DNA of 64,000 nucleotides, taken from contig OY759724.1 of the NCBI GenBank assembly GCA_963662715.1, forward strand, positions 1,626,662 to 1,690,661, given 5' to 3'. Source of the stretch: Candidatus Omnitrophota bacterium. Lineage in GTDB: Bacteria; Omnitrophota; Gorgyraeia; Zapsychrales; JANLHA01. The notes below the pieces were generated by a model, which saw only the letters and a program-made list of their open reading frames with translations, made no database searches and was not told where the DNA came from. Position 1 is the first letter of the stretch, and every line of letters starts with the position of its first letter. Of this stretch, positions 18,601 to 34,016 are shown piece by piece. The position numbers and the translations under genes are program-made.

Positions 18601-19450
18601 AACCGTTCAGGATTTGGGCTGCATGGCCTCATATGACGGTCTAACCTGTTCGTACGATCAACGATTGATTGTGACCACTCCGACGAACGCGAATTGTCCT
18701 GAAGAAAAAGAATGTAATTATGATGTGTCCTGTACAACATGTACGACCGGAGACACCCTGGCCTGCGCTGACGTAAACGGCTGTCCCTACCAGCGTATCT
18801 GCGAAGACGGTTACTGGAGCAGCTGTCAGCAGGTTAATCCTCTTTGCACTCCGGGAGAGATTGTTGATTGTGAGCCCAATGCCGACGGGTTTATTTCCAA
18901 AAAGACCTGTAATGTCTGCGGGACAGCCTGGGGACCCTGCTGGTGTGACCCGCAGGAAACACAAAGCTGTACAACCTCCGCTTCCTGCCCCGGGATCGGC
19001 ACATGTTCCGGAGGAGGCTGGTCTCCTTGCGAGCAAAGCAACCCGACATGTATTCCCGGCTCGACCCATGACTGTACTTTGGGCGACGGAAACCCGGGGG
19101 TCGAAGATTGTAATTCCTGCGGAGACGGCTTTGGTACGTGCCGCTGCTTGGCCGGCGCGGTTTATTGTTATATCGAAGGGGTTCTGGGAACCCAGACATG
19201 TAATACGACGACGGGGTTGTATGAGGATTGTGTCTGTATCAGCGGATCAACCAAGCAATGTACCACGACTTCGGGATGTACGGCCGGGGTTATTTATTGT
19301 AACGACGGCACCGGGCTCTTTGACGGCGACTGTGAATTGCCGTATTCTGAATGTACTCCGGGAGAAACCAGGTCTTGTCTGAAATACTTTATCATCCCTG
19401 GGACGGAGACATGTATGTCCTGCGGGAACTGGAGTGGTGTGTGTGAGTAA
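15650..19450 (+). CDS. Giant secreted hyper-cysteine-rich tandem-repeat protein (1266 aa; ~18 'CC-x-Y...CG...YP[DE]T...NP-x-C' modules plus C-terminal EGF-like modules)
   Basis: N-terminal signal/TM 'FCAMVVCTVFLVLLSEYGAFSQ'. Iterated motifs include CCDYG, CCGYP, CCEYG, CCNYP and CCQYG. 'C[TI]PG[ES]' modules appear at the C-terminus. The RBS-like GGGAGATGAGAGAG precedes the ATG. Confidence 0.85.
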   Translation: MLSYRKIWRFCAMVVCTVFLVLLSEYGAFSQTWTDDDLATAQRPVKPIHIREMRRAIYNKRMLCGMSSPTWQEPNIIEKVTPIRAQHVEELRQAIRDVYDMPPSRTLPDGVILATDVPEESAIRADHIFEIRLSIEEVSCCGDGECNPPFEDLDNCPVDCGACTYSDWVILGCGVSPCDGNEIQRKKTAPEDGCQDLIECIAAYDTCCNYGAWEDYDCGGGECDPTAMRQIQQSATSVAGCEDRYRCLELESCCDYAGFVWQCGYDILYPDTQWLEVNIPDNSACEPEFGTIYEADDPISKANCCDYGAQSSSCGGEVEGVTYPDSTLITQRAAGNPNCEDDITITPNADDCCDYGPIETPPSCGATLRVDGVMTTFPDTTFLQFRTPTNPNCDHKIVQELAIEEDPTKYCCQYSGFQGDCGYDPVYPDTDWIEYNIAGVVDVSCPVEYRNHLPNADSCCCYESTSICGDGVTYPTSSMITSKTPTCNPSCSTEVTEDTFNEACCGYGPWQYDQCGYAGYYDDTYLVDYRSPTNPLCDPIFGDVCGPNHEDCCGYPEKDVVCGGTWEGVVYPETTCIYDAAKPANPNCPDKCGSIEEMCDYCCDYEITSSHCGDGVTIPVTTQVVTRTPNNPNCDVIVDEQIPDGCCGYPAGSSRICGYDGRPATTSVEVMEPTQDFDDCETIIQNEIENDPFCCDYAGFQASQCGYSGWYEAHTRLEVNEPNNAITGCDPLFQNVVPYEYECCEYGTATSTCGDGVSYPTSSWVTTQTSAAGCDAIEGEETNHQNCCNYPASPTTECGALGYPETYLVSYLESSTNPTCEIQIIGTPAYDEVCCQYGSLQQGCGDGVQFPLTDYVSWHEPGLVHVDCPVKVISQIENDDTCCGYPAEYTAVCGYSALGYPETTLVEIKEPTLAECPVKSRNPVPYDDTCCEYTTNYYCGYPSPLDIPDTNYVEVKEPGGGKSCPVEAVNETAYAEICCGYTTGTVQDLGCMASYDGLTCSYDQRLIVTTPTNANCPEEKECNYDVSCTTCTTGDTLACADVNGCPYQRICEDGYWSSCQQVNPLCTPGEIVDCEPNADGFISKKTCNVCGTAWGPCWCDPQETQSCTTSASCPGIGTCSGGGWSPCEQSNPTCIPGSTHDCTLGDGNPGVEDCNSCGDGFGTCRCLAGAVYCYIEGVLGTQTCNTTTGLYEDCVCISGSTKQCTTTSGCTAGVIYCNDGTGLFDGDCELPYSECTPGETRSCLKYFIIPGTETCMSCGNWSGVCE

Positions 19451-19549: not shown

Positions 19550-20167
19550 GTGTCTCAAGAACCAGAATCCCAGCTAAATCAGATTTATTCGGATCCGGAT
19601 GTTTTGCTTATGCTTGAGGTCCAGAAAGGCCACCAGGCCCCTTTTGAGAGCCTGATGCGTAAGTATTATAAACGGATTTATAATTTTATTTACCGTTTTG
19701 TCGGACATCGACAGCTGGCCGAAGATTTGACACAGGATGTTTTTATCCGTGTGTATAAATCGGCGGATTCTTACCATCCCAAAGCAAAATTTCAAACCTG
19801 GATTTATACTATTGCTAAGAATTTGAGTCTTAATGAATTAAGAAAAAAGAGCTCTCGAAACAGTATTTCTTTAGAACAAGAAATTCCGACTTCCCGTGGG
19901 GCCGTGCTGCCCCAGGTCGAAGACCCTCGTGCGAAGAGTCTCTGGGAATCCATGGCGCAGGAAGAAAAACAGTCTGTTGTCAGGGAGGCCATTCAGAGTC
20001 TTCCTGAGAATCAGAGGATGGCTGTTATTTTGCGGAGATACGAAGATCTTTCTTACGAACAGATTGCTCAGACACTCCAATGTTCCGTGCCTGCCGTTAA
20101 GTCTCTTTTGAATCGGGCTAAAGAAGGGCTGAAAGGGAAGCTCAGGAATGTTATGGGAGATTATTGA
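19550..20167 (+). CDS. RNA polymerase sigma-70 factor, ECF subfamily
   Basis: Region 2 'YKRIYNFIYRFVGHRQLAEDLTQDVFIRVYK' and region 4 'LPENQRMAVILRRYEDLSYEQIAQTLQCSVPAVKSLLNRAKEGL'. GTG start. Confidence 0.9.
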   Translation: MSQEPESQLNQIYSDPDVLLMLEVQKGHQAPFESLMRKYYKRIYNFIYRFVGHRQLAEDLTQDVFIRVYKSADSYHPKAKFQTWIYTIAKNLSLNELRKKSSRNSISLEQEIPTSRGAVLPQVEDPRAKSLWESMAQEEKQSVVREAIQSLPENQRMAVILRRYEDLSYEQIAQTLQCSVPAVKSLLNRAKEGLKGKLRNVMGDY

Positions 20168-20722: not shown

Positions 20723-21002
20723 TCAGCAAAACAATTTTGTGCTAAAAGGAAGGGCTATTTTTGTGCTGAGCCTCTGTGCTTTTATCTTTATGGGGGGCCG
20801 GAATGGAGATTGCGGGAAAGAACAACAGAAGGATTCTTTGAAAAAGAAAACACAAGATGAGTCTGTTGTCGAATATATGGATATTTTAGATATATTGGAA
20901 ATTCTGGATGAGCGGGACATTGATTTCTTTCAGGATGATTTTTTTAGTTATCAGGAATTCGAGGGAGAGAAGGATGGAAAGGACAAAACAAAAAAGAAGT
21001 AG
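20694..21002 (+). CDS. Small acidic protein with signal peptide-like N-terminus; shares an 'MDIL...L..D' motif with the anti-sigma C-terminus
   Basis: 'AIFVLSLCAFIFMGG' hydrophobic segment, then 'VVEYMDILDILEILDERDIDFFQDDFF' and a Lys-rich tail. It overlaps both neighbours by 29 nt in different frames. The true start is uncertain. Confidence 0.4.
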   Translation: MLSKNLMLFNQQNNFVLKGRAIFVLSLCAFIFMGGRNGDCGKEQQKDSLKKKTQDESVVEYMDILDILEILDERDIDFFQDDFFSYQEFEGEKDGKDKTKKK

Positions 21003-21531
21003 GTGTTTTTCGTGTGTTTTGTTTGTAATTCTGATTTGTTTTATCGGGCGTCCGGCGGCTGCTCAAACAACCGGGCAGGCCCGTGAAATCCGTGACGAAA
21101 AACGGTTGTCGGAAAAATTCGAAAGGTGGCAACAGCTCAGCGAAAAAGAGAAAGCCCTGTTGCGCCGGCGTTTTGAAAAATGGCAGGCGATGTCCCCTGC
21201 GCGGAAAGCAAGAATTCAGGAAAGGTTTAAACGGTTTAAATCCCTGCCTATAGAGAAACAGCAGGAGCTTCGGAAGAACTGGCGGCGCTTTATGAACATG
21301 ACCGAGGGGCAGAAAAGAGAAATCAATGCGCGTTATGCCCGATGGAAGAAAATGACTCCGGAAGAACGCAGAAGACTAAGAAACCGGTTTTACCGGTTTA
21401 TGCAGATGTCCCCGGAGGAACGCAGGCAGCTGCAGCAAAAAAGAGAGCGGTGGCAGTCTCTTTCTCCGGAAGAACGGCAGAGAATACGTCAAAGAATACT
21501 TGAAAAAAGAAGACAGGCCCAGGAAATGTAA
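20974..21531 (+). CDS. DUF3106-type periplasmic repeat protein ('SPEER' repeats) typical of ECF sigma / anti-sigma loci
   Basis: Signal peptide 'MERTKQKRSRCFSCVLFVILICFIGRPAAA'. At least 4 repeats '(M/L)(S/T)PEERxxLxxRxxRW/F'. Internal ATG at 20974. Confidence 0.75.
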   Translation: MERTKQKRSRCFSCVLFVILICFIGRPAAAQTTGQAREIRDEKRLSEKFERWQQLSEKEKALLRRRFEKWQAMSPARKARIQERFKRFKSLPIEKQQELRKNWRRFMNMTEGQKREINARYARWKKMTPEERRRLRNRFYRFMQMSPEERRQLQQKRERWQSLSPEERQRIRQRILEKRRQAQEM

Positions 21532-21802: not shown

Positions 21803-22207
21803 ATGACAGCCAAAGCAAAATTTTATTTTAATATTTTAACAACTTCCGGAGTCCCGATCTACCGGCAGATCATTGATCAGGTGAAAACTCTTATTGCGGC
21901 CGGCCGGTTGTCGTCAGGGGAGTTCCTGCCTTCTGTTCGTCAGGTGGCGCAGGAGCTGGAAATAAATCCTATGACGGTTTCCAAAGCCTATTCTTTATTA
22001 GAGAAGGAAGGAGTTCTGGAGTTTGCCCGCGGGCAGGGCATGAGAGTGAAGGGAAAAACTATTCCTCAAAAAGATCTGAAACAGCGGGAAGAGGCGCTTA
22101 TTCCTTTATTAAAAGAGGTCATTATGCGGGCTTGTCAATTGTCCGTTCAGCCGGAAAAGGTTATCTTACTTATGGAACATTTGTGGAAGGAGCAGCGTCA
22201 TGAATAA
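21803..22207 (+). CDS. GntR family transcriptional regulator, short YtrA-like subfamily
   Basis: 'IYRQIIDQVKTLIAAGRLSSGEFLPSVRQVAQELEINPMTVSKAYSLLEKEGVLEFARGQGMRV' is a GntR wHTH. The short C-terminal domain is followed by an ABC ATPase, as in YtrA-type operons. Confidence 0.85.
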   Translation: MTAKAKFYFNILTTSGVPIYRQIIDQVKTLIAAGRLSSGEFLPSVRQVAQELEINPMTVSKAYSLLEKEGVLEFARGQGMRVKGKTIPQKDLKQREEALIPLLKEVIMRACQLSVQPEKVILLMEHLWKEQRHE

Positions 22208-23078
22208 TTTTGTGATAAACATGCAGGGCGTTACAAGGCGTTATCGATCTAAAACGGTTTTGCAAAATTTGTCTTTGCGCGTTCCCGAAGGGTCGGTGTT
22301 TGGCCTGTTGGGGAAAAACGGGGCGGGGAAGACGACCCTCATTAAATGTGTTTTGGGTTTATTGCATCCTCATGAGGGCCAGATTTCGGTCCTGGAAGAT
22401 CATCCCGGGGATTTCTCGAATCAAACTAAAGAAAAGATCGGCTATGTCCCTCAGTCAGACCGGATTTATCCCTGGTTAAATGTCAGGCAGCTTGTTGCTT
22501 ATACGGCTTCGTTTTATTTTCACTGGAATACAGGTTTGGTTGAACGGTTGCTGAAAGAGTGGGAGTTGGATGAAGAGGATAAAGTGGGTTTGCTGTCAGA
22601 AGGCCAGGCCCAAAAACTGGCCATCATCCTTGCCTTAGGACATGAGCCGAGTGTATTGATATTTGACGAACCCGTTGCCAGCCTGGATCCTGCCGCCCGC
22701 AGGAATTTCTTAAAGACCATTCTGGATATTGTCGCTGACCGGAAATGCACGATATTTTTCTCCACCCATATCACCTCAGACCTTGAACGGGTCGCCGACC
22801 GTGTCGCTTTGCTGAAAGACGGAAAAATTGATTTTTGCGGTGAGCTTGACGTGTTAAAAGAAGAAGTCAAAAGACTGCGGGTGGTGTCTTCTGTCCCGTT
22901 GTCCCGGGAATTCCAGCTTGACGGCCTTCTTCACTGTGAACTGTCAAAGTATGAGGCTATTTTGTCTGTGCGCGGCTTTCATCCGGATCTGAAAAACCAG
23001 ATAGAGAAAAAAATCGGAGCGAAAATAGAAGTCGAGGATCTGAATCTTGAAGAAATTTTTCTGGAGCTCCATTCATGA
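22200..23078 (+). CDS. ABC transporter ATP-binding protein
   Basis: Walker A 'GKNGAGKTTL', signature 'LSEGQAQKL', Walker B 'LIFDEP', H-loop 'THI'. Confidence 0.9.
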   Translation: MNNFVINMQGVTRRYRSKTVLQNLSLRVPEGSVFGLLGKNGAGKTTLIKCVLGLLHPHEGQISVLEDHPGDFSNQTKEKIGYVPQSDRIYPWLNVRQLVAYTASFYFHWNTGLVERLLKEWELDEEDKVGLLSEGQAQKLAIILALGHEPSVLIFDEPVASLDPAARRNFLKTILDIVADRKCTIFFSTHITSDLERVADRVALLKDGKIDFCGELDVLKEEVKRLRVVSSVPLSREFQLDGLLHCELSKYEAILSVRGFHPDLKNQIEKKIGAKIEVEDLNLEEIFLELHS

Positions 23079-24463
23079 GAAATAAATATTATCAGATTTT
23101 CAACCTTTATTATCAATACATCCCTTTCCGTATCTTGTCGGCGTGTTTAGTGGCCACAGCTTTGCTTTCAAGATTTTCCCTTAAGCAGAAATACTATTAT
23201 GTCGCCGATGATTTTTTCACCTTTTTTCTGGTTGTCAGTGTCTGGCTGGGTTTCACTTCCGGGGTGTTATTAAAGAGACAGATGGCGCATCCCCGGGCCG
23301 CACTGCTGCCGGATTACCGTATCCCCCATATCATTGTCCCTTATAGTTTTTTTGCCTTCTTTATCGCGGTTTACTGTTATTGGCTCAGCAGCCTTTACCC
23401 GCTTATTATCCTGGAGAAAGCAGCTGTGTGGTCGGTTTTTCTGTTAAGTGTTCTTATCATCAACCTGATTATCTGGGTCGGATATCTGTCCATTAGTTTG
23501 CTGGTCTATGTCTCGTATTTTCTTCTGCTCGTGATTTCCTGGCAGACGTTTAACCTGGTTATCCTCATTACCGAACAGGCGCATTGGCAGCTTGCCCTGG
23601 CTCTGGCGAGTGTGGCTTTGCTTCTGCTGCTCGCTTGGCGAATGACGGTCTTAAATGAGGACAAGTTTGAATACGGCTATATTATTTCCTGGCCGCATAA
23701 GGAATTCCTCCACAATCAAATCAAAGCCGGAGAACTTTATGTCCGGGCGATACATTTTATTAAAAGCCGGCTCGGGCTTAAGCCCCGCAGAGTTGCCGTT
23801 CCTCCTTATCCGAGAGAGGCGGCCCTTTGGCGGAGGGCGTACCATTGGCATTATTTGGATTTGGCTGAATTGAAAAGTATTTGGATTCTGCTTGTGGTTT
23901 TGACGCCGGTCTATGTTTACCGCATCCCTGGGATGTCTTTTTTTCATGACTTTTACAGGGATCCTTACAGTAATTTTTTGCTTTATGCCATTGCCCCTGT
24001 CCTGATCGTTTTATGCTCGAATTATCGTAACATGAGCACCTGGCCGCATGATCTTCTGAAACCGGTCCGAAAAAAAGACTTTATTAAAGAGCAGGGGGCG
24101 GGACTTTTGGCGGGGCTGGGGCTGTACTGGCTGTTGTTTGTGATGTACTTGGTCTTTATCCCGCATTGCGTGCTTCAACCCGCTGCCTTGTTGAGCAGCC
24201 GGTTCTGGGGATATTTGGCTTTGTCAGGAAGTTTTGCCTTCTTGACATTGTCCTGGGTCATTTTTATGAGCACTTATTCATCCCGGCCCTGGTTTGTCCT
24301 GGCTAACGGAAGCGTTCTTGTGGGGCTGGCGCAGTTGTTGTTTGTGGTGGCCGGGAAACAGCCTTTCATGATCAATATGTTGAATAGTGCTCTGTGTTGG
24401 GTAGGCATTTATTTATTTTTGAAATGGGGTTACCGGAAATGGTGTCAGGCTGAGACAGCCTAG
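23075..24463 (+). CDS. Polytopic integral membrane protein (putative permease partner of the ABC ATPase)
   Basis: 462 aa with >=10 hydrophobic helices. 4-nt overlap with the ATPase gene. No recognisable family motif. Confidence 0.6.
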   Translation: MRNKYYQIFNLYYQYIPFRILSACLVATALLSRFSLKQKYYYVADDFFTFFLVVSVWLGFTSGVLLKRQMAHPRAALLPDYRIPHIIVPYSFFAFFIAVYCYWLSSLYPLIILEKAAVWSVFLLSVLIINLIIWVGYLSISLLVYVSYFLLLVISWQTFNLVILITEQAHWQLALALASVALLLLLAWRMTVLNEDKFEYGYIISWPHKEFLHNQIKAGELYVRAIHFIKSRLGLKPRRVAVPPYPREAALWRRAYHWHYLDLAELKSIWILLVVLTPVYVYRIPGMSFFHDFYRDPYSNFLLYAIAPVLIVLCSNYRNMSTWPHDLLKPVRKKDFIKEQGAGLLAGLGLYWLLFVMYLVFIPHCVLQPAALLSSRFWGYLALSGSFAFLTLSWVIFMSTYSSRPWFVLANGSVLVGLAQLLFVVAGKQPFMINMLNSALCWVGIYLFLKWGYRKWCQAETA

Positions 24464-24474
24464 GAGGGTTTGAT

Positions 24475-25917
24475 ATGAAAGTCAAAATGATTTTACCCGC
24501 GTTGTCTGAAGCCAAGAGTATATACTGGCGGCCTTTGAAATATTCTTTGTTCCCGCCTTTGGGTTTAGCGACTTTAGCCGGTTTTCTTTCCGCTGAGGAT
24601 GATATCGAAATCCGGGATGAACATGTTGAAGATTTATTCCTGGATGACGATCCTGACCTCGTTGCGATCCAGGTTTATATTACAGCCGCCCACCGGGCTT
24701 ATGAAATAGCCGATCATTACTGCCGGAAAGGCGTTTACGTTGTTTTAGGCGGTTTACACGTAACCTCTCTGCCGCAGGAAGCCGCTCTTCATGCCGACAC
24801 GATTTTTTTAGGTCCGGGCGAAGATACCTGGCCGCAATTTTTGCATGATTTTAGGCATGCGCGTCCCCGCAAAATTTACTCATCAACCCATCGTTCCCTG
24901 ACCGGCATCCCGCCTTTGCGGCGGGATCTTATTAAACGGCATTTGTATCTGGTGCCTAATTCTTTGCTTGTGTCCCGGGGCTGCCCGCACAGATGTGATT
25001 TTTGTTATAAAGAATCTTTTTTCCAGGGGGGCAGATCTTTTTATACCCAGACGGTCGATGATGCGCTTCATGAGATCCGCCGTCTCCCGGGGAAGCATCT
25101 TTTTTTTCTTGATGACCATCTCTTCGCTGATGAACGCTTTGCCTTGTCGTTGTTTGACGGAATGAAAGGAATGAAACGGGTCTGGCAGGCTGCCGGGACA
25201 GTGGCTTCCGTATTAAGGCCTCGTTTAATTGAGAAAGCCGTTGATTGCGGATTGAAAAGCCTGTTTGTCGGGTTTGAAAGCGTTAGGTCGGATACCCTCG
25301 CGGCATACAATAAACAGCATAACAGCAGAAGCGATTATGATGATGCCATCAGAAAGCTGCATGATTTGGGTGTCATGATCAACGGGAGTTTTGTCTTTGG
25401 CTGGGATGAGGACGGCCCGGATGTTTTTGACCGGACGGTCGAATGGGCCATAAGTCACGGGATTGAAACAGCTACCTTTCATGTCCTGACGCCGTATCCC
25501 GGAACCGCGCTTTTTAAACGCTTATTATTTCAGAAACGTCTGCTAAAAAAGAATTGGGACCTGTATGATACCCGGCATGCGGTCTTTGCTCCGGCACAAA
25601 TGTCGGCTGAAGATTTGGAGAAAGGATATGGGAGGGCGTATCGTGATTTTTATAAGTGGGGATCAATCTTTCAGGGGGCGGGGAATCATGCCTCAGGAAA
25701 AGATGCTTTGCGGCACCTGGCTTATGCCGGGGCCTGGAAAAAGTGTGAGCCATTATGGAATTTTATTATCAAGATTCGGCAGATTCAGAAAATGCGTCCT
25801 TTCCTGGAAGCGGTCCTTTCCGGGGGGCGGCGGGAGGAAGGGCGGATTCTTCCCGCCGTAAAAGACAGGGGGGTGCTGCAAAAGGAACGGATGTCATTTA
25901 AAACCGCCGGACCGTGA
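24475..25917 (+). CDS. B12-binding domain / radical SAM protein
   Basis: The N-terminal B12-binding-like domain is followed by 'CPHRCDFCYK', a CxxxCxxC radical SAM cluster motif. Confidence 0.85.
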   Translation: MKVKMILPALSEAKSIYWRPLKYSLFPPLGLATLAGFLSAEDDIEIRDEHVEDLFLDDDPDLVAIQVYITAAHRAYEIADHYCRKGVYVVLGGLHVTSLPQEAALHADTIFLGPGEDTWPQFLHDFRHARPRKIYSSTHRSLTGIPPLRRDLIKRHLYLVPNSLLVSRGCPHRCDFCYKESFFQGGRSFYTQTVDDALHEIRRLPGKHLFFLDDHLFADERFALSLFDGMKGMKRVWQAAGTVASVLRPRLIEKAVDCGLKSLFVGFESVRSDTLAAYNKQHNSRSDYDDAIRKLHDLGVMINGSFVFGWDEDGPDVFDRTVEWAISHGIETATFHVLTPYPGTALFKRLLFQKRLLKKNWDLYDTRHAVFAPAQMSAEDLEKGYGRAYRDFYKWGSIFQGAGNHASGKDALRHLAYAGAWKKCEPLWNFIIKIRQIQKMRPFLEAVLSGGRREEGRILPAVKDRGVLQKERMSFKTAGP

Positions 25918-26280: not shown

Positions 26281-27030
26281 ATGAGAAAGAGTCTTATCCC
26301 ATTGCTGCTTGTCGTAATGGTCTTTTATTCCTGTTCTTGCGAAGAAAGGCCTGGCAGAGAAGATCCTGTTGCTTTCCGAGATAACAAACTGACTTTCAAG
26401 CTGGAAAACGTTCCTCTAGCCGAGGAGCCTTTGGAAGAGACGGATTATGCAACAGTCATAAAGAACATTTCTTACGAATTGCTTGAGCCTCAAGACGGTC
26501 ATTTTATAACGGATGAGCAGATAGCCAAAGTTAAACTTGAAGCCAGCGGATTCAAAAGGAAAGAAATCATTTCTTCCCATAACCATCCTTTTATAAGTGC
26601 GCTGACATATTCATTCAATGATCATCGCCCGTTAATCCTCTCCCCGGATATGATATGGCTTTTGATTTGTCAGGGGTTCGGGGAACATGTTAATGCCAAC
26701 GCTGAAGAGCTAAGAGACAGATTTGTCGATCATCCCGGCCAAAAAACACTCGTTGTTAAAAGGCATGATTTTGTTAAAGGTCATGAGGCGAATCCCTGGC
26801 CCGAAGTTTTTCCGTTATTTTCAAAACAAATAAAGAAATACTCTAATAATGATTTGTATGACATCCTGGTTGCAAACTATTCTACAACCACGCAAGCCGA
26901 AAAAACCGCATATGAAATGACATTTATGTACACCAATAAATTTTATTTTGCCTATAGATTCGAAACCTGGTGCGGAATTCCGAGCATTACTTTAGAAGGG
27001 ACGAAAGAGGACTGGGAAAAGATTCTTTAA
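26281..27030 (+). CDS. Putative lipoprotein / secreted protein of unknown function
   Basis: Signal 'MRKSLIPLLLVVMVFYSCSC'. An open frame-2 stretch continues past the stop to 27224. Confidence 0.6.
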   Translation: MRKSLIPLLLVVMVFYSCSCEERPGREDPVAFRDNKLTFKLENVPLAEEPLEETDYATVIKNISYELLEPQDGHFITDEQIAKVKLEASGFKRKEIISSHNHPFISALTYSFNDHRPLILSPDMIWLLICQGFGEHVNANAEELRDRFVDHPGQKTLVVKRHDFVKGHEANPWPEVFPLFSKQIKKYSNNDLYDILVANYSTTTQAEKTAYEMTFMYTNKFYFAYRFETWCGIPSITLEGTKEDWEKIL

Positions 27031-27229
27031 AAGAAAGCTTGAGTTCGGGGATTTTCCGTCCGGCATATATATTGCACCCCTGGAATGGTGTTATTTGGGT
27101 GAGACTTTCGATATGAAATTAGTGGCGGGCTTTGTAGGCATGACCCAGGATAAAGATACCAAAGCCGTACGCCCGGAAATAAACTGGATCATATACGATG
27201 TTACTGATGTTTCGGAAAAATAGTGACCT

Positions 27230-28024
27230 ATGAAATCAAATTTGTCTCATAACGTATTGAAATTGACTCTTCTGTTTTCGGGCGTCTCTACTTTGGGCCT
27301 GTTTATAGCCATGGCGATACATGAATTGGGTCATATCATTGTTGTCCTTTATTACGGGGGGCGGGTGACAAATCTTCATTTGCAGCCGTTTTCCCGTTCT
27401 GTCGTATCGTATTCCGTCCCGGCATCAGCGTCACAGTTATGGATCGCCTCCGGGGGCATTGTTTTCAGCATGATCATGGGCGGACTCGCTTTTTTGCTCG
27501 CACGTAAAATACGGTCTCCATACGGGTTGCCGGTCATTATGACAGGAGTCGCGGCTTTCATCGGGAATGGTTTTTATTTTGTTTTTGGTGCAATCATGTA
27601 CGGCGGCTTCGGTGATCCGGCAAAGTTAATGGCTTCGGGGTGCCCGGCCTATGGCCTTGTGATTTGGGGCGGTGTCCTTTTTATTCTTGGCTGCCTAGCT
27701 TTCCTTGCGAATCTTCCTTTGCTCGGGATCGGTCCGGAAGATTCCTGGGGACGAAGATCTGTCATCTTTGCCGGAGGTATTGCGCCTTATTTGATATGCG
27801 TGATGGTTTATAACGCTGTTTTTGATGAGACGCGCATTCCGCATTATTTTACTTTTATTGTTGGAACTATTTTTATGCTGTTGGCCGGGGCTTTTATGAC
27901 CAGGTTTTTGTCTGAGCGTTTGAGATGGCTCCAAAGACCTGCTGTAAGAGTTTGTTGGAAGCATGCATGGTTTGCTGTATACTTAAGTGTGCTTGTGATT
28001 ACGATAGAGCTGGTTTCTTTTTAG
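27230..28024 (+). CDS. Membrane protein with intramembrane HExxH motif (putative M50/S2P-like or DUF3267-like zinc metalloprotease)
   Basis: 'LFIAMAIHELGHIIVVLYYGG' places HELGH inside a TM helix. 6-7 TM segments. Confidence 0.55.
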   Translation: MKSNLSHNVLKLTLLFSGVSTLGLFIAMAIHELGHIIVVLYYGGRVTNLHLQPFSRSVVSYSVPASASQLWIASGGIVFSMIMGGLAFLLARKIRSPYGLPVIMTGVAAFIGNGFYFVFGAIMYGGFGDPAKLMASGCPAYGLVIWGGVLFILGCLAFLANLPLLGIGPEDSWGRRSVIFAGGIAPYLICVMVYNAVFDETRIPHYFTFIVGTIFMLLAGAFMTRFLSERLRWLQRPAVRVCWKHAWFAVYLSVLVITIELVSF

Positions 28025-28106
28025 CGGAGCCTGCCGTAAAGCCGTCAAACTAAACGAAAGAAAACCGGATGACCGTGTTTATTTCATAATTTTTTAAAAG
28101 TGTTCT

Positions 28107-28817
28107 ATGCAGATTTTATTTTCATTTTTTCTGGCCGTATTGCCGGCTTTGCTTTTAGTCCGGTATTTTTACAAAGCTAATCCGGCCCCCAAAGCCCTGA
28201 TCATTAAGCTGTTTCTTCTGGGGATTATATATACTCTTCCGGTTTATATTTTAGAAGAGATTTTGGCCCGCTTTAATGTGTATACGGAAGGCTCTTTTAT
28301 CCTGTATTATTTTTTTGAAGCCTTTATCGTTGCCGGGCTGTGCGAAGAATACATCAAGTTAAGAGTCGTTAAGAAATACGGATATAATTCCCCGTATCTG
28401 CAGGGAGAAGGCGACGGGATCATCCTTACTGTTGTGGCCAGTATGGGTTTTGCCTGTATGGAAAATATTTTGTATGTTATCAATAATTCCTGGTATATGG
28501 CTTTAGCCCGGGGGTTTACGGCGGTTCCCATGCATGCGATTTGTTCCGGAGTCATGGGATATTATCTGGGGCTCGCCAAACGCGCCCGGATAGCCCAAGA
28601 ACCGCAGACAGAAAAATATCTTATTAATAAAGGATTATGGCAGGCCATTTTAATCCACGGGTTATATGACTTTTTCTTGTTCATTTCTCCTATCCTGGGT
28701 TCAGTTTTTGCGACATTCACCGTTCCCCTTATGCTTTGGTATTATTTTTCCTTGAAAAGAACAATTCATAATGCTGTAGAGGATAGACTGCGGTTTTTTA
28801 AGGAGGGACAGGCATGA
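28107..28817 (+). CDS. CPBP/PrsW-family intramembrane glutamic-type metalloprotease (CAAX-protease-like)
   Basis: Motif 1 'CEEYIKL' (EExxK), motif 2 'GFACMENIL' (FxxxE), motif 3 'IHGLYDFF' (HxxxD). Confidence 0.75.
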   Translation: MQILFSFFLAVLPALLLVRYFYKANPAPKALIIKLFLLGIIYTLPVYILEEILARFNVYTEGSFILYYFFEAFIVAGLCEEYIKLRVVKKYGYNSPYLQGEGDGIILTVVASMGFACMENILYVINNSWYMALARGFTAVPMHAICSGVMGYYLGLAKRARIAQEPQTEKYLINKGLWQAILIHGLYDFFLFISPILGSVFATFTVPLMLWYYFSLKRTIHNAVEDRLRFFKEGQA

Positions 28818-29260
28818 GTTTTATTTATGCTGTTTTTGCTTATCCCGCTGCGCAAATGGCGGCCTTTTTCTGGGGGGCAGAGCTTCAGTGGCTGAAAGGA
28901 GAGGAAATTCGGATATTGATCTCTCCGCAGCCTATTCAAGTCACAGCTTCCTGCAGCGGTTTTGGATTTTTTTCTTTATTTTATATTTATATTGTCTTTT
29001 ATGTGGTACGGTATTGTCAAAGATCCCGGATGTGGGCTGCGGTCCTGATTCCTTTGCCGGCCGTTTATTTAGCTACCGTTGTAACTAACGCAGCCAGGAT
29101 GATTTGCGCTTATCATATTGCCCGTGTCAGCGGGGCCTGGTTGCCGTCTTTTTTTCAGCCCATTATTCATATGGGGGTCGGGGTGGCTTTCTTTCTCGGT
29201 GTTTTTATCGTAAGCACTTTATTGTTGGAGAGAATATTGCCTTATGGAAGACAATCATAA
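28814..29260 (+). CDS. Exosortase/archaeosortase-family protein, minimal catalytic core (148 aa)
   Basis: 'IQVTASCSGFGFF' matches the exosortase catalytic 'aCSG' motif. 'VVTNAARMI' matches the N-x-x-R motif. An Arg lies upstream in 'GEEIRIL'. Its ATG overlaps the TGA stop of the upstream gene (ATGA). Confidence 0.65.
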   Translation: MSFIYAVFAYPAAQMAAFFWGAELQWLKGEEIRILISPQPIQVTASCSGFGFFSLFYIYIVFYVVRYCQRSRMWAAVLIPLPAVYLATVVTNAARMICAYHIARVSGAWLPSFFQPIIHMGVGVAFFLGVFIVSTLLLERILPYGRQS

Positions 29261-32200
29261 AATGACGATCCTGCCGGTCTCTGTGAAGAGCCGCATTCTT
29301 GTCTTTTGGGTTTTTATCCTGCCTCAATTTGTCCTTTTCCTTTTGAATGTTTTTTCGTTCTGGATTATCCGGGAGGACATGGCCGCTTCCCATCTTTACA
29401 AAGTCTTTACGATAGCCGGCTGTGAGATTTTTCTTCTGCTTATCATGTGCGTCCTGTGGATGTCCTGGAAGCGTGCGGGGCTAAATTCCATTCCCTGGAA
29501 ATGGAACTGGTTTTTTCTCCTGATGCATATGGCGTATCTCTGGTACGTGAGCTATGAGATTCCCGCCGTCATTCCTGCGGGAACCGAAGCCTGGATTCTT
29601 GACCGGGGCCAGGTTATTTTATCCCAGTATGCTTTCATGATGCCGGCTTTGTTTTATTCGGCCTTGCGCTTAGCGTGTTTTGAGACGCGTTTAACCCGGG
29701 GGGCGGATATCGGACGCAGCCTCCTGGTTGCGGTCGGCATGCCGATGCTCTGGTATACAGCTATGCTGGGGCTGTCAACCTTTTACCGCTGGACCTGGAT
29801 GTGGTTCCCGACGGCCATCGGAATGGTGTTCTTTGTCGGAAGCAGCGTCATCACACTCATAGCCCTTATCCGCCTAAGCGTTTTGATTTATAGCTGGTAT
29901 CAGGGCCGGGATGCCTGGACTCACAATACCGTTATTGCTCTGGTCGCTTTGGTTGGGCCTTTGGCCGGGTTGCTTTTAAACCGGAACATCCCTTTCCCGG
30001 CTGACTTTCAGTCAGAAATCATTTATGGGCTGGCCGTCGTTAACGGGCTTATCCTGCTTGTCCCTTCGATCTTTAGAATGAAATATCAGCGCGTACGGCT
30101 GTTTTTGCGTGCATGGGCGTATCCTTTTACCCTTTATTTCTTTCTCGTGTTTTTACCTTTTCTCCCTTTATCCCTGCTCGCCATTTGTGCCTTGGGATTG
30201 GGATTCCTTTTTTTGATCCCGGTGCTTTTGTTTTTACTTCATACGAAAATACTTATTGAAGATTATCAGTCCTGCGCGCAGCAAGGTAGCCGTATGACCG
30301 CTGTTGCCCTTATCTTGTCGGCATGCCTTGTTTTGCCCGGTGCTTTTGTCGCTGAGACGCTTTGCGATAAAACCGCCGTAGAGCAGGCTCTCGATTATGT
30401 CTACGCATCTGATTATGAACAACCTCAATGGTATCCCGGGTCTGCAAGAGCTGTTGAGCGGACTTTAATAAAAATGCGGCAGGCTAAAGACGGGGCCCAA
30501 TTGCCGTACCTTTCTGCGCTTTACAACCGGATTGTTTTTCACGGTATGGTTCTGCCTAATTCCAAAATGGAGTATATGTTCCGGCTTTTTACCGGAAAGT
30601 CTTTAAACGATGTTTATGAAAAATCGGCCGGCTGGCGCAGCCGTATCCGAGGGAGAGATGGTGCCATGTCCGCGGGCCGGCGCAGAAGGCCTGAACGGGA
30701 CCGGAATGTTGTTCTTTTTTCAACGACCAAGACCAGCCGGAATGAGGGGGTTTCAACCGTAACGAAAATGGTGTTTTATTTTATAAATATCGGTCATGAT
30801 AATGCGGCGGAATTTTTCAGGGAATGCACGCTTCCCCCGGGCGTTCTGATTACCGATTTTCGTTTGCAGCTTAATAACGAACTGGTGCCGGGGCAAATAT
30901 TCGAACAGAAAACGGCCACATGGGTTTATCATATGATCCGGGACTGGACCCGGCGGGATCCCGGCCTCATTGTCTATAAGTCTCCGCAAGTGTTTGAGCT
31001 CAGCATTTTTCCTTTTCGCACGAGAGAAACCCGCTATGCCGAAATTGAATTTACCTATCCGCGTGATGCGGCACCGGTCATCTATATCGGCAGAAAAGGG
31101 ATTGCTTTGCGTTCCCGGGATGAGGGCCCGCCCAGCCCGCCTGTCCCGTTAACGGGCCAGGACGCTTCAGGGAACAATTATTCGCTGGTTTTCCCCGAAA
31201 TGTTGGAGTCTCTGGCAAAGATTAAAAGAAAGCCTTATTTGCATTTTATTCTGGATTTTTCCCTGGGAGAGGATCCGTCCCAATATGCGCAACAGATGAT
31301 GGATGTTGCCGCTGAGTTCCCGGATATCCATAAGGGGAAAATCAGTGCGGCCAATTTTGAAGTTGAATCTTTGACCCGGGATTTTATAGATTTCAGAAAC
31401 AGCGATTTAATAAAACAACATCTGCAACAGGTCCGGCTCCCGTCCCGCGGGGCTCTGGAGCTTTCCAGAGTTTTTAAGCACGAATTGACGATGTATCAAT
31501 CCCGTCTTGAAAGCGAGGATTTTGCCTCATGGTCCGAGTATCCTGTCTTTGTTGTTTTATCGCAGAAAAAAGATAACGTCATATCCCCGGAAGACATGTC
31601 GTATTTTCAATTCCTGACTCCGGAAAATGACAGTTATTATATCAAAACGCCGGATCAGCCGGCGCAGAAACATCCGCTTTTCCGGGCGGTTCTAGACCCT
31701 TACCTGCCGGAAGATGTGGTTGTCTTCAGGAGAGGCCCTTATGTGTCATTCGCTCCCGGACCGAGATGGGAGAGATGGCAATGGCATGTTCTTATAAACC
31801 AGGGAAAGGGGAAGCAGCAGCCTTTGGAGGTTTATGATCCCAATCAAAAATATTTTGTCCCGATTTTATACGAAAGGATTCCCGGGGGCTCTTTTTACGG
31901 GCAAGCCCTGGGGCTGTACGTGAAGAATTATAAGGACATTCTGAACCCTTCTAAACTTAAGCGGTCGCTGCCGGCACTCGTGCAGCAGAGCAAGTCCTTG
32001 GGGGTTTTGATCCCGGCCACAGCTCATATTATTGTCGAACGCAGTTCCCAGTGGAAAACTCTTCAGTTGAGAGAATTTCAGCGGTTGCATAGTCAGCAGG
32101 GCCTGGAGTTTGAAGAGGACTTTGAAACACCTGCCCCGCCTTTCTGGCTGCTCGCGATAGCGTGCTTTTTGTGGCTCCGGAGCAGACGGGCGGGCGCAAA

Positions 32201-32270
32201 ACATCCCATGATACCCTTCCCGGTTAGCGATTGTTGTTCGTCCTCCACGAAGAAAGCTGAAAAAGAATAG
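29244..32270 (+). CDS. Large polytopic-membrane / VIT-like domain protein with C-terminal PEP-CTERM-like sorting element (putative exosortase target)
   Basis: 1008 aa. Residues ~1-370 hold >=10 TM helices. The soluble region carries 'FRLQLNNELVPGQIFEQKTATWVYHMIRDWTRRDPGLIVYKSPQVFELSIFPFRTRETRYAEIEFTYP'. The C-terminus is 'TPAPPFWLLAIACFLWLRSRRAGAK', a Pro-rich motif, TM helix and Arg cluster. Confidence 0.75.
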   Translation: MEDNHKMTILPVSVKSRILVFWVFILPQFVLFLLNVFSFWIIREDMAASHLYKVFTIAGCEIFLLLIMCVLWMSWKRAGLNSIPWKWNWFFLLMHMAYLWYVSYEIPAVIPAGTEAWILDRGQVILSQYAFMMPALFYSALRLACFETRLTRGADIGRSLLVAVGMPMLWYTAMLGLSTFYRWTWMWFPTAIGMVFFVGSSVITLIALIRLSVLIYSWYQGRDAWTHNTVIALVALVGPLAGLLLNRNIPFPADFQSEIIYGLAVVNGLILLVPSIFRMKYQRVRLFLRAWAYPFTLYFFLVFLPFLPLSLLAICALGLGFLFLIPVLLFLLHTKILIEDYQSCAQQGSRMTAVALILSACLVLPGAFVAETLCDKTAVEQALDYVYASDYEQPQWYPGSARAVERTLIKMRQAKDGAQLPYLSALYNRIVFHGMVLPNSKMEYMFRLFTGKSLNDVYEKSAGWRSRIRGRDGAMSAGRRRRPERDRNVVLFSTTKTSRNEGVSTVTKMVFYFINIGHDNAAEFFRECTLPPGVLITDFRLQLNNELVPGQIFEQKTATWVYHMIRDWTRRDPGLIVYKSPQVFELSIFPFRTRETRYAEIEFTYPRDAAPVIYIGRKGIALRSRDEGPPSPPVPLTGQDASGNNYSLVFPEMLESLAKIKRKPYLHFILDFSLGEDPSQYAQQMMDVAAEFPDIHKGKISAANFEVESLTRDFIDFRNSDLIKQHLQQVRLPSRGALELSRVFKHELTMYQSRLESEDFASWSEYPVFVVLSQKKDNVISPEDMSYFQFLTPENDSYYIKTPDQPAQKHPLFRAVLDPYLPEDVVVFRRGPYVSFAPGPRWERWQWHVLINQGKGKQQPLEVYDPNQKYFVPILYERIPGGSFYGQALGLYVKNYKDILNPSKLKRSLPALVQQSKSLGVLIPATAHIIVERSSQWKTLQLREFQRLHSQQGLEFEEDFETPAPPFWLLAIACFLWLRSRRAGAKHPMIPFPVSDCCSSSTKKAEKE

Positions 32271-32320
32271 CGTGTGGTTTTTCATAGAAAAGTGGTTTTA
32301 TTTCTGTTAAGATAAACGCC

Positions 32321-33091
32321 ATGAACAGATTATTTTTAATCCGCAAAATCATGTTCGTCGGATTTTGTCTGACGTTTTTGCTGGGTTTCTCGGATATTAA
32401 ATTGCAGGATATCGAAACAGCTGTGATTGAAAAAGATTATGAAACGGCCAGGAATCTTGCCCAGACATTCCTCGCCTCCAATCCCGGCCGCGCCCAGAAG
32501 AATGAAGCTTCTTATTATCTGGGGTTAAGTGAATTGTTTTTGGGTGAGCCGGAGAAAGCCAGACAGATATTTGTGAAGATTATTGAAAGTGACCCGGATG
32601 CCCCGCTGAAGGGGAAAGCCTATATCGGCGAAGTTGACGCTTACTTTTTTCTGGAGAAGTACGAGGTCGCTTTGCATAAAGCAGAGGCTTTGCTGAATAA
32701 ACGGGCGGGCCGGGGATTCTCGGGGTTAATCTATCTGAAAATGGCCCGTGCCCATCTGAAGCTTGGCCGTTGGGACGAGGCCCGGAAGTATTTAAATAAA
32801 ATTATCTCTTATGCCCCGGACAGTGTGGAAGCTCACCGGGCAAGGCAGCTTCTCCAGGAGCGGCAGTTTTTTTCCGTGCAGTGCGGTTCCTTCCTGCACC
32901 GTTCTCATGCCGAGAATCTGGTGGAAGAATTGAAAGGCCGGGGGGAATATGCCTATATCGTTGAGACCGTCGATAAAGACGGTACGGGATTTTACCGGGT
33001 GCGGGTCGGTCAATTGTCAACCCTTATTGAGGCCAAAAATTTAAAAAAGAAATTAGCTGATTTAGGTTATCCTGCCTTGATTTATCCTTAG
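32321..33091 (+). CDS. TPR-repeat protein with C-terminal SPOR (peptidoglycan-binding) domain
   Basis: N-terminal TM/signal, then TPR-like helices. The C-terminus 'FSVQCGSFLHRSHAENLVEELKGRGEYAYIVETVDKDGTGFYRVRVGQLSTLIEAKNLKKKLADLGYPALIY' is a SPOR fold signature. Confidence 0.75.
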   Translation: MNRLFLIRKIMFVGFCLTFLLGFSDIKLQDIETAVIEKDYETARNLAQTFLASNPGRAQKNEASYYLGLSELFLGEPEKARQIFVKIIESDPDAPLKGKAYIGEVDAYFFLEKYEVALHKAEALLNKRAGRGFSGLIYLKMARAHLKLGRWDEARKYLNKIISYAPDSVEAHRARQLLQERQFFSVQCGSFLHRSHAENLVEELKGRGEYAYIVETVDKDGTGFYRVRVGQLSTLIEAKNLKKKLADLGYPALIYP

Positions 33092-33092
33092 T

Positions 33093-34016
33093 ATGCATCA
33101 TAATAAAATTATTTTCATCGTCGGCCCGACAGCCGTCGGCAAAACAGAAGTGGCTTTTCGTTTGGCTCAGCAGATGCAGGCGGAAATTGTTTCCTGTGAC
33201 GCTATGCAGGTTTATCGGGAGGTTTCCATCGCCACGAACACCCCTTTGCCGGAGATGCTCCGCTCCGTGCCGCATCATTGTGTTCATGTTGTTGAGCCTT
33301 CCCGGGAATTTGATGTCGCGGCGTATAACGATATGGCGCTGCAGGCTGTCCGGGATATCTTTCAAAGACAGAAGACAGTGGTGATCACTGGCGGCAGCGG
33401 ATTGTATATGCAGGTTTTGCTGGACGGCATTTTTCAGGGAGCGCCCAAAGAACGCTATATCAGGGATGAGTTGTGGCAGAGATTTGAAGCAGAAGGCCGT
33501 GAAGCGCTTATCCGTGAATTAAAGGCCCGGGATCCCATGGCCGCTCAACGCATTCATCCTCATGATACCCGGAGGATTATCCGGGCCCTGGAGGTCTGTT
33601 TGGCGACGGATCAGCCTTTTTCCAAGCTGCAAAAGGAACGGCAAGGGCTTTGGGGAAAATATGAGATAAGTCTTTATGCCTTGACGCGGGAGCGGGAGGA
33701 CTTATATGATCGGATTAACCGGAGGGTTGATCAGATGTTTGAGCAAGGGCTTATGGAGGAGATCGGCCGTCTCCGGCAAAGGTCTTTGAGCCTTACGGCT
33801 CGGCGCATTATCGGTTTCAGGGAGGTTTCGGGGTGTTTGGATCATGAATATGATGAAAGCCGGGCCCGGTATCTTATGAAACTGCATACCCGGCATTATG
33901 CCAAAAGGCAGCTGACCTGGTTTAGAAAAGACAATCGTATTCAATGGATTTTCCTGCGGCGGGATGCGGGGGCGGCAGAGCCGCTGGCGGCCCTTGCCAA
34001 AGCGGAACATTTGTGA
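33093..34016 (+). CDS. miaA: tRNA dimethylallyltransferase (MiaA)
   Basis: P-loop 'IVGPTAVGKTEVAFRLA...EIVSCDAMQVYR'. Confidence 0.9.
   Translation: MHHNKIIFIVGPTAVGKTEVAFRLAQQMQAEIVSCDAMQVYREVSIATNTPLPEMLRSVPHHCVHVVEPSREFDVAAYNDMALQAVRDIFQRQKTVVITGGSGLYMQVLLDGIFQGAPKERYIRDELWQRFEAEGREALIRELKARDPMAAQRIHPHDTRRIIRALEVCLATDQPFSKLQKERQGLWGKYEISLYALTREREDLYDRINRRVDQMFEQGLMEEIGRLRQRSLSLTARRIIGFREVSGCLDHEYDESRARYLMKLHTRHYAKRQLTWFRKDNRIQWIFLRRDAGAAEPLAALAKAEHL

Follow-up and report, generated by a model that had tools for sequence, protein, structure and literature searches.

A putative MSEP-CTERM sorting signal with an extended C-terminal tail, and its paired exosortase-like gene, in a Candidatus Omnitrophota genome

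Does the 1008-residue protein encoded here end in a genuine exosortase sorting signal, and what is to be made of the 22 residues that run on beyond its basic cluster? The question arises from a stretch of 64,000 nucleotides of Candidatus Omnitrophota DNA (the window, meaning the whole of the stretch analysed), for which the original prediction had proposed a tripartite, exosortase-type C-terminus with an extra tail, the tail representing either a new sorting-signal variant or a cytoplasmic end retained after cleavage.

The C-terminal module and the family of the protein

The 1008-aa ORF was confirmed at 29244..32270 on the forward strand, and the features that we distinguish within it are the following:

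29244..32270, + strand: gene for an MSEP-CTERM family protein of 1008 aa, the putative substrate (from TIGR04286 and the homologues)
29295..30404, + strand: predicted N-terminal polytopic membrane domain, residues 18-387, with 11 long helices (from AlphaFold2 and hydropathy)
30708..32090, + strand: predicted VIT + vWA-like ectodomain, residues about 489-949 (from Pfam VIT and Foldseek)
32106..32141, + strand: region of the signature motif, E955-P966 (EFEEDFE-TPAPP), where recognition and cleavage presumably take place (from conservation and the linker)
32142..32177, + strand: short hydrophobic TM segment F967-L978, FWLLAIACFLWL (from sequence, spacing and the model)
32178..32201, + strand: basic cluster RSRRAGAK (R979-K986), the putative cytoplasmic stop-transfer element (from sequence and the family)
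32202..32270, + strand: the 22 extra residues of the tail, HPMIPFPVSDCCSSSTKKAEKE, and the stop codon; non-conserved and predicted to be disordered (from comparison and pLDDT)

The C-terminus reads ...EEDFE-TPAPP-FWLLAIACFLWL-RSRRAGAK and then continues for 22 more residues (H987-E1008, C995-C996 included). Every part of the tripartite design is present as originally described: T962-P963-A964-P965-P966, a 12-residue hydrophobic run (F967-L978) and R979-S-R-R982, with K986 in addition. The element itself thus stands, with small corrections to its position and wording: nucleotide 32129, given as its start, is 2 nt out of frame (the in-frame start is 32127), and the string quoted as 47 residues has 48 letters, the extra leading E being E961 (nt 32124-32126). 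The last 47 residues are TPAPPFWLLAIACFLWLRSRRAGAKHPMIPFPVSDCCSSSTKKAEKE.

The full-length HMM TIGR04286, named “MSEP-CTERM sorting domain-containing protein” in NCBIfam, scored 378 bits on the protein (cut-off 150, E = 8.7e-113), and the alignment runs over residues 19-977 and covers positions 8-908 of the 920 in the profile; the score for TIGR04477, the XrtN-system VIT domain protein, was 29 bits and lay below its cut-off of 250. We found 186 homologues, many of them already bearing the TIGR04286 name, the best at 52-54% identity and none above 54% among the homologues found; the Omnitrophota homologues with a T-P-x-P motif are among those that NCBI labels MSEP-CTERM. Since an existing curated model captures the element and close homologues are publicly labelled, it is not new.

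The literal M-S-E-P is absent from this protein, which has T-P-A-P in its place. P965, which aligns with the Pro of MSEP, occupies an invariant alignment column (Pro in 109 of 113 homologues, drawn from several phyla), and T-P-x-P, preceded by E-E-D-F, was found throughout the window's clade (23/23; consensus EEDFxTP[AS]P[SP]) as the clade-specific counterpart of M-S-E-P. MSEP is limited to the Bacteroidota-like clade, with M at -3 in 39/41, and members from the PVC group and Gammaproteobacteria carry a PEP-like motif, even a literal P-E-P. The spacing from Pro to the basic residues is 13 here vs. a family median of 15 (range 12-22), and across the family the helix leads into a K/R cluster. 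The module was scored by an alignment-anchored measure, a regular expression having missed it in 28 of 120 proteins. Because P965 is conserved and the motif-helix-basic module recurs family-wide, the module of the 1008-aa protein is more than a product of chance.

The comparison with exosortase-signal models, suggested at the outset as a check, had a divided result: the full-length MSEP-CTERM model matched, and no stand-alone model, PEP-CTERM included, did so. Neither the last 60 aa nor the tail-less 40 aa of the isolated peptide had an NCBIfam match even at E <= 10, which rules out such stand-alone models for the peptide by itself; the signal assignment stands despite this null result because it rests on the family model for the whole protein and on the gene pairing described below. 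Nor did any other ORF end in a Pro motif, a hydrophobic run and a basic cluster when all stop-to-stop segments of 100 aa or longer in the 64-kb window were scanned. The original prediction had proposed that a motif shared with no other protein, together with no match to any exosortase-signal model, would indicate an ordinary anchor, a test that is ill-posed for a dedicated system of one enzyme and one substrate: there, a lack of other motif-bearing proteins does not refute the signal, and a scan of the window for further motif endings is uninformative. In dedicated one-to-one systems, the criterion is that the two genes are consecutive, in place of a motif common to many proteins (Haft preprint, 10.1101/2023.06.07.544157).

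The AlphaFold2 model of the protein (mean pLDDT 85, pTM 0.84) has 11 N-terminal helices, H18-45 through H350-387, vs. 10 segments in a crude hydropathy scan; the odd number of helices, together with K/R at the N-terminus, would place the domain that follows outside the cytoplasm. In that domain, Pfam VIT scored 22.9 bits at residues 507-602, slightly under the gathering score of 26.5, the best Foldseek match was inter-alpha-inhibitor heavy chain 1 (6fpy, E = 3.7e-10), and a profile of A1 gave a weak match to ITIH4. The linker that carries the motif (residues 959-966, pLDDT below 50) is flexible in the model and leads into a single C-terminal helix at 967-985.

The upstream mini-exosortase and its pairing with the substrate gene

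A small ORF precedes the substrate gene on the same strand, and the 17 nt at its 3' end are shared with the start of the 1008-aa gene:

28814..29260, + strand: XrtK-like mini-exosortase of 148 aa, presumably the enzyme dedicated to processing the substrate (from HMMs, invariant residues and pairing)

Judged by its sequence, the 148-aa ORF encodes a member of the exosortase family that most resembles XrtK. It passes the exosortase/archaeosortase signature TIGR04178 (32.2 bits vs. a cut-off of 23), and its best named match is XrtK itself (TIGR04287), at 38.2 bits and below the cut-off of 55. Six other non-Bacteroidota partners tested all scored 28-44 bits with the XrtK model vs. 150-169 bits for those of Bacteroidota, which were the only partner enzymes to pass the cut-off among the partners tested. 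C47, N92, R95, H119 and G123 are invariant across 65 partner sequences.

The pairing is widespread: of 80 related loci, 78 have an Xrt-like ORF immediately upstream in the same orientation (77 plus a truncated one in L060), and the paired loci span Omnitrophota, the PVC group, Gammaproteobacteria and Bacteroidota; in L017 and L030, no hidden or fused exosortase was found in the upstream sequence (6,000 nt up to the match). The class of motif varies together with the cluster of the Xrt, MSEP accounting for 17/18 loci in one and xPxP for 50/56 in the other, a co-variation that is confounded with phylogeny. The exosortase sorting-signal reading of the original prediction is borne out by the score with TIGR04286, by an exosortase-family gene with its Cys, Arg and His overlapping the start codon, and by this pairing, all of which support the C-terminal element as a genuine exosortase-type signal of the already catalogued MSEP-CTERM family.

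The locus of the window sits among housekeeping genes and not in an EPS locus. In the window, as in its three closest relatives (L001-L003), genes for PrsW and M50-like intramembrane proteases come shortly before the pair and in a shared order. We considered these two and a TPR-SPOR protein as parts of the system and rejected them, as they stand beside the pair only in L001-L003.

The extra tail and the competing explanations

The tail is indeed unusually long, as had been noted: 30 aa follow the helix vs. a median of 12 (IQR 10-15), which is the second longest of the 109 in the protein set and exceeds all 75 of the independent species-representative genome set (maximum 26). One could see in this length, in the vicinal Cys pair and in the Ser/Lys-rich end a functional part of the signal, serving cytoplasmic docking, modification or regulation and thereby making a new variant, and two further observations lean the same way, namely the somewhat longer tails of the window's clade (median 15 vs. 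11 in Bacteroidota) and the 10% Pro of the pooled tails. We regard a functional tail as very improbable, however, given what the relatives show. The tail sequence is unalignable even with relatives at 52-54% identity, in which the motif and the helix do align well, and its length is not conserved either, even in the closest of them; the CC pair, unique as it is, occurs in no other tail (92 tails); and the post-helix lengths are continuous, not bimodal, with 13 of 109 reaching at least 20 aa and the family spanning 6-38. AlphaFold2 gives residues 986-1008 a pLDDT below 50, and loss of the stop codon in relatives would add a median of 16 codons, so that the excess length has the size expected of a single stop-codon shift. 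A new sorting-signal variant created by the tail is not upheld by these data; comparison and model instead point to a non-conserved, presumably disordered extension and no new type of signal. Near the tail, a promoter and terminator scan of 27000-33200 gave nothing beyond shuffled expectation.

We think it likely that the protein carries an MSEP-CTERM sorting signal in a one-to-one relationship with a dedicated XrtK-like exosortase, that it is cleaved at the motif, and that the tail is the drifting end of the fragment that leaves. For the topology, the cleavage and its site, and the fate of the new C-terminus, we infer the following course. The 11-helix N-terminal domain would insert in the inner membrane, its N-terminus staying on the cytoplasmic side, bringing the VIT-vWA domain (about 489-949) into the periplasm, and the helix F967-L978 would cross the membrane once more, leaving RSRR and the tail on the cytoplasmic face. 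The mini-exosortase, presumably a Cys protease or transpeptidase acting through C47, R95 and H119, would recognise EEDFxTPxP at the outer face and cut there, either hydrolysing the bond or transferring the new C-terminus to some acceptor. The leaving fragment would comprise the helix, the basic cluster and the tail, about 45 residues in all, and such a position would put little constraint on the residues past the basic cluster, so that their length and sequence could drift; the 22 extra residues of the window's protein would most simply come from a stop-codon shift. There is a precedent for a signal in an internal position in Haloferax volcanii, in which archaeosortase ArtA processes a substrate whose tripartite signal precedes a whole fused domain (a NifU domain after the basic cluster), the fusion not preventing processing (PMC6098224). 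The tail is most likely the cytoplasmic end of the cleaved-off fragment. Its retention on the mature protein, the other possibility first raised, does not agree with this scheme, since cleavage at the motif, if it takes place, would remove the tail together with the helix.

A permanent anchor would account for the same C-terminus without any cleavage, the helix being a twelfth membrane helix and the tail a short cytoplasmic end. With 11 membrane helices already present, cleavage is unneeded for anchoring or release, and the protein would in any case stay in the membrane through them afterwards, which counts against the cleavage explanation; the isolated peptide, moreover, matches no signal model. 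Experimental proof of cleavage was found in the literature for no XrtK/MSEP-CTERM pair (our search of the library returned no paper mentioning MSEP-CTERM and no published experiment on such a pair, and a 2018 review states that exosortases had not been experimentally analysed at that date). We nevertheless consider a permanent anchor unlikely, as it leaves aside the acidic/Pro signature with its invariant Pro directly before the helix and its flexible linker, the almost constant presence beside the gene of an exosortase homologue whose Cys/Arg/His are intact, and the arrangement of a short, 12-residue helix followed by an Arg cluster, as in cleaved sortase-type signals.

An assembly or sequencing artefact is a still less probable source of the tail, by which an indel or base error would have shifted the true stop and the 22 residues would not be made in the cell. 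The protein is represented by a single sequence in 15 billion (cluster size 1), an alternative frame stops at about 32225-32227, and a 1-nt indel just past the basic cluster would leave a typical tail of about 15 residues; yet 32178-32270 contains no homopolymer or obvious error-prone context, tails of 20-38 aa in independent assemblies mean that long tails do occur, and the source contig of 3.36 Mb suggests an assembly of high quality. We would give as little weight to the idea that the non-Bacteroidota branch, with T-P-x-P or P-E-P motifs and partners below the XrtK cut-off, is a distinct exosortase subtype in which the longer tails of the window's clade matter after cleavage; the PrsW and M50-like proteases encoded upstream could, for example, act on the released stub of helix and tail or respond to it as a signal.

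Significance and comparison with known systems

Under the preferred reading, a cleaved MSEP-CTERM signal with a drifting tail, there is little here by way of discovery, the element being one that an existing curated model already covers. Its wider implications concern the family, a polytopic VIT-vWA membrane protein with a private exosortase. The MSEP-CTERM/XrtK pairing is found far outside Bacteroidota as well, where the signature is of the Pro-x-Pro or PEP type; the XrtK model misses the non-Bacteroidota partners, and either its cut-off or the model could be broadened. The length past the basic cluster is free to vary (6-38 aa), and detectors that require the signal at the extreme C-terminus would miss the long-tailed members.

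Among the known systems that we compared are the inter-alpha-inhibitor heavy chains, which the window's protein resembles in the VIT + vWA fold of its ectodomain (ITIH1, PDB 6fpy). ITIH chains lose a C-terminal propeptide and are then covalently linked through the new C-terminus, which makes a suggestive analogy to the processing envisaged here; in contrast to the window's protein, however, they are eukaryotic and secreted, share about 10% identity with it, and have neither a membrane domain nor an exosortase. ArtA/PGF-CTERM has an enzyme of a homologous superfamily, for which C-terminal cleavage has been shown experimentally, but differs in being archaeal, in its PGF motif, in its many substrates per enzyme and in its lipid-anchored products. 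The XrtN system (TIGR04477/exosortase N) likewise has a dedicated substrate with an N-terminal multi-helix region and a VIT domain, although the low TIGR04477 score (29 vs. 250 bits) marks the protein as belonging to a different family.

PEP-CTERM/XrtA (TIGR02595/TIGR03109) shares with the window's system the Pro motif, TM helix and Arg cluster as well as an enzyme superfamily with Cys, Arg and His. Unlike its substrates, the peptide studied here had no stand-alone NCBIfam match at E <= 10 (a search taken to include TIGR02595); XrtA serves many substrates where the present system is one-to-one; and the enzyme has 148 aa, whereas XrtA is larger, its profile alone covering 261 positions. The locus, too, lies outside any EPS neighborhood, and the substrate is itself a polytopic membrane protein. 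The closest system is TIGR04286/XrtK (TIGR04287), from which the window differs in having T-P-A-P for M-S-E-P, an enzyme at 38 vs. 55 bits and 30 vs. 12 aa after the helix. The two agree in the full-length HMM match, in an N-terminal multi-helix domain (about 400 aa), VIT-like ectodomain and C-terminal module, and in a small exosortase gene (about 150-200 aa) immediately upstream, forming a dedicated one-to-one pair.

The C-terminal element and its family

The original prediction had described a tripartite, PEP-CTERM-like C-terminal element with a 22-aa tail carrying a CC pair, and all of these parts are present in the translation of the 1008-aa protein, whose last 47 residues read TPAPPFWLLAIACFLWLRSRRAGAKHPMIPFPVSDCCSSSTKKAEKE. 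The placement of the Pro motif, hydrophobic run, RSRR cluster and 22-residue tail held up as well, except that the start at 32129 lies 2 nt out of frame and should be 32127.

29244..32270, + strand: MSEP-CTERM family protein gene, 1008 aa, ORF confirmed
Residues T962-P966: Pro motif
Residues F967-L978: hydrophobic run of 12 residues
Residues 979-982: RSRR basic cluster, plus K986
Beyond the basic cluster: tail of 22 residues, including C995-C996

The reading of this element as an exosortase signal was correct in kind: the protein matches NCBIfam TIGR04286 (“MSEP-CTERM sorting domain-containing protein”) over its full length at 378 bits (E = 8.7e-113; curated cut-off, 150 bits), and the element is a member of this already curated family. 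Profile positions 8-908 (of 920) align with residues 19-977, so that the profile ends about a dozen residues past the helix and about 19 residues short of the protein's end. A search of 5.8 billion proteins returned 186 homologues, many of them already carrying the MSEP-CTERM name, in Omnitrophota, Verrucomicrobiota, Kiritimatiellia, Gammaproteobacteria and Bacteroidota. An identical sequence is present in public data on a 3.36-Mb contig, and the closest relatives (52-54% identity) belong to Candidatus Omnitrophota MAGs, which makes an Omnitrophota-like genome the most probable source of the window. No mention of the MSEP-CTERM family was found in the literature searched.

The neighboring exosortase and the signature motif

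The genes around the 1008-aa gene are as follows:

27230..28024, + strand: M50-like HExxH membrane protein (sub-threshold Pfam matches)
28107..28817, + strand: PrsW (Pfam, 108.9 bits), its stop overlapping the mini-exosortase start by 4 nt
28814..29260, + strand: mini-exosortase, 148 aa, directly upstream and overlapping the start of the 1008-aa gene by 17 nt
32321..33091: TPR-SPOR protein, flanking the enzyme-substrate pair

The 148-aa ORF passes the exosortase/archaeosortase signature TIGR04178 (32.2 bits; cut-off, 23), and among named models it comes closest to exosortase K (XrtK, TIGR04287), at 38.2 bits and under the cut-off of 55. Among 80 related loci from species-representative genomes, an Xrt-like ORF lies immediately 5' on the same strand in 77, or in 78 when L060 is counted, where only the 3' end of the ORF is present at the contig edge. 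In the other two loci (L017 and L030, both Chthoniobacterales MAGs) no exosortase gene was detectable from 6,000 nt upstream to the match; in L017 the open reading frame extends about 560 codons 5' of the homologous region (GC 62.5%). The sole invariant columns among 65 aligned partner enzymes are C47, N92, R95, H119 and G123, and Cys/Arg/His is the catalytic triad proposed for exosortases and archaeosortases (Haft preprint, 10.1101/2023.06.07.544157). Of the partners tested, only those from Bacteroidota pass the XrtK cut-off (150-169 bits), while our enzyme and six other non-Bacteroidota partners (Omnitrophota, Verrucomicrobiota, Gammaproteobacteria) score 28-44 bits; this contrast sets L001-L057, L062, L069 and L080 against the remaining loci of L058-L079. 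The substrates of these non-Bacteroidota enzymes, in contrast, do score above the MSEP-CTERM cut-off, and the reach of the curated XrtK model thus seems limited to the Bacteroidota branch of the system.

The motif was compared by anchoring on the P965 column, which is invariant in one alignment (A1) and is Pro in 109/113 homologues. The signature differs by clade: E-E-D-F-x-T-P-[AS]-P-[SP] in our own (T-P-x-P in 23/23), [AST]-P-[EA]-P, frequently literal PEP, in PVC and Gammaproteobacteria, and M-S-E-P in Bacteroidota. Motif class also co-varies with the cluster of the neighboring enzyme (MSEP in 17/18 loci of one; xPxP in 50/56 and MSEP in none of the other), which supports the pairing, short of proof because both track phylogeny. 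The isolated C-terminal peptide, with or without its tail, matched no stand-alone NCBIfam signal model, and no other ORF of at least 100 aa with such an ending was found in the 64-kb window. Neither result counts against a sorting signal, since dedicated one-to-one systems are diagnosed by adjacent enzyme and target genes and not by a motif common to many proteins (Haft preprint, 10.1101/2023.06.07.544157).

The M50-like protein, PrsW and the mini-exosortase (27230-28817 plus the mini-exosortase gene) form three consecutive membrane-embedded putative proteases in the same orientation. We rejected PrsW, the M50-like protein and the TPR-SPOR protein as system components: they recur only in the three closest Omnitrophota relatives (L001-L003), indicating local synteny. 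The pair does not sit in an exopolysaccharide locus; farther out, its neighbors are housekeeping genes such as miaA, hflX, clpB and one for an ECF sigma factor. All long plausible ORFs (at least 180 aa, non-nested) lie on the + strand across the 64 kb, a very strong bias, and no tRNA genes were found in 1-64000. For a 1266-aa ORF (15650-19450, +) Pfam gave nothing at E <= 1e-5; next come genes for an ECF-type sigma factor (19550..20167) and for a DUF3106 protein (20908..21531). Farther on (23075-25917, +), a 462-aa ORF without a Pfam match adjoins an ABC ATPase (22200..23078) and precedes a B12-binding radical SAM enzyme (24475..25917) and a DUF4419 protein (26281..27030).

Length and origin of the tail

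The post-helix segment of the 1008-aa protein is 30 aa, as against a median of 12 in the protein set (IQR 10-15, range 6-38), where it reaches at least 20 aa in 13/109 homologues and at least 30 aa in 2/109. An independent set of genomes gives an equal median (12, with a maximum of 26), and tails are somewhat longer in our own clade (median 15; at least 20 aa in 5/17). The tail is thus extreme, yet part of a continuous distribution. Its sequence, HPMIPFPVSDCCSSSTKKAEKE, has no recognisable likeness to the tails of the closest relatives (for example RRDPGRAPLHPREIRSSPGD, RRQRRPGRFLAPSVR and RWRQRRRNRLEVPSSWKTCPDT), and the CC pair is absent from every other tail among the 92 compared. The original suggestion of a new sorting-signal variant therefore finds no support, and a functional, novel part of the signal is very improbable for a tail without conservation.

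An assembly error is just as improbable a source of the tail: only a single sequence of the protein exists and an alternative frame reaches a stop at about 32225, but tails of 20-38 aa occur in independent assemblies. A single stop-codon shift is enough to explain the 18-residue excess, since a stop probability of 0.054 per random codon gives a mean of 18.5 codons to the next stop, and computed readthrough in the relatives adds a median of 16 codons (at least 18 in 48% of loci). The family's longest tail (38 residues past the helix) is found in P0103, a 969-aa Bacteroidota-like homologue; it is very K/R-rich and terminates in NRRKRRQIRK, so that long extensions past the basic cluster arise in the canonical MSEP clade too.

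Architecture and proposed processing

The AlphaFold2 model, built with a 34-sequence alignment, is confident overall (mean pLDDT 85, pTM 0.84), with pLDDT below 50 in tail residues 986-1008.

Residues 18-387: 11 long N-terminal helices
Residues about 489-949: beta-rich plus alpha/beta domain
Residues 959-966: low-confidence linker holding the signature motif
Residues 967-985: single C-terminal helix

Among PDB structures the model best matches inter-alpha-inhibitor heavy chain 1 (6fpy, E = 3.7e-10), in agreement with a sub-threshold Pfam VIT match and a weak profile match to ITIH4, and the ectodomain is accordingly VIT plus vWA-like. From the odd number of N-terminal helices and the K/R-containing N-terminus, we infer that this domain sits outside the cytoplasm; the C-terminal helix would then cross back through the membrane, leaving RSRR and the tail cytoplasmic. 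That this helix is instead a permanent, uncleaved twelfth one is unlikely, as it would leave both the invariant Pro signature and the near-obligate exosortase neighbor unexplained. In the cleavage that we propose, by homology with archaeosortase A, the mini-exosortase would cut at or near T-P-A-P, followed either by hydrolysis or by transfer of the new C-terminus to an acceptor, and the mature protein would stay anchored through its N-terminal domain. The fragment so discarded would comprise the helix, the basic cluster and the tail, and the tail would drift because it is part of what is lost. Substrate cleavage by archaeosortase A has been demonstrated experimentally, and an ArtA substrate with a whole NifU domain fused after its signal was still processed (PMC6098224), so that sequence past the basic cluster is tolerated in the exosortase/archaeosortase superfamily.
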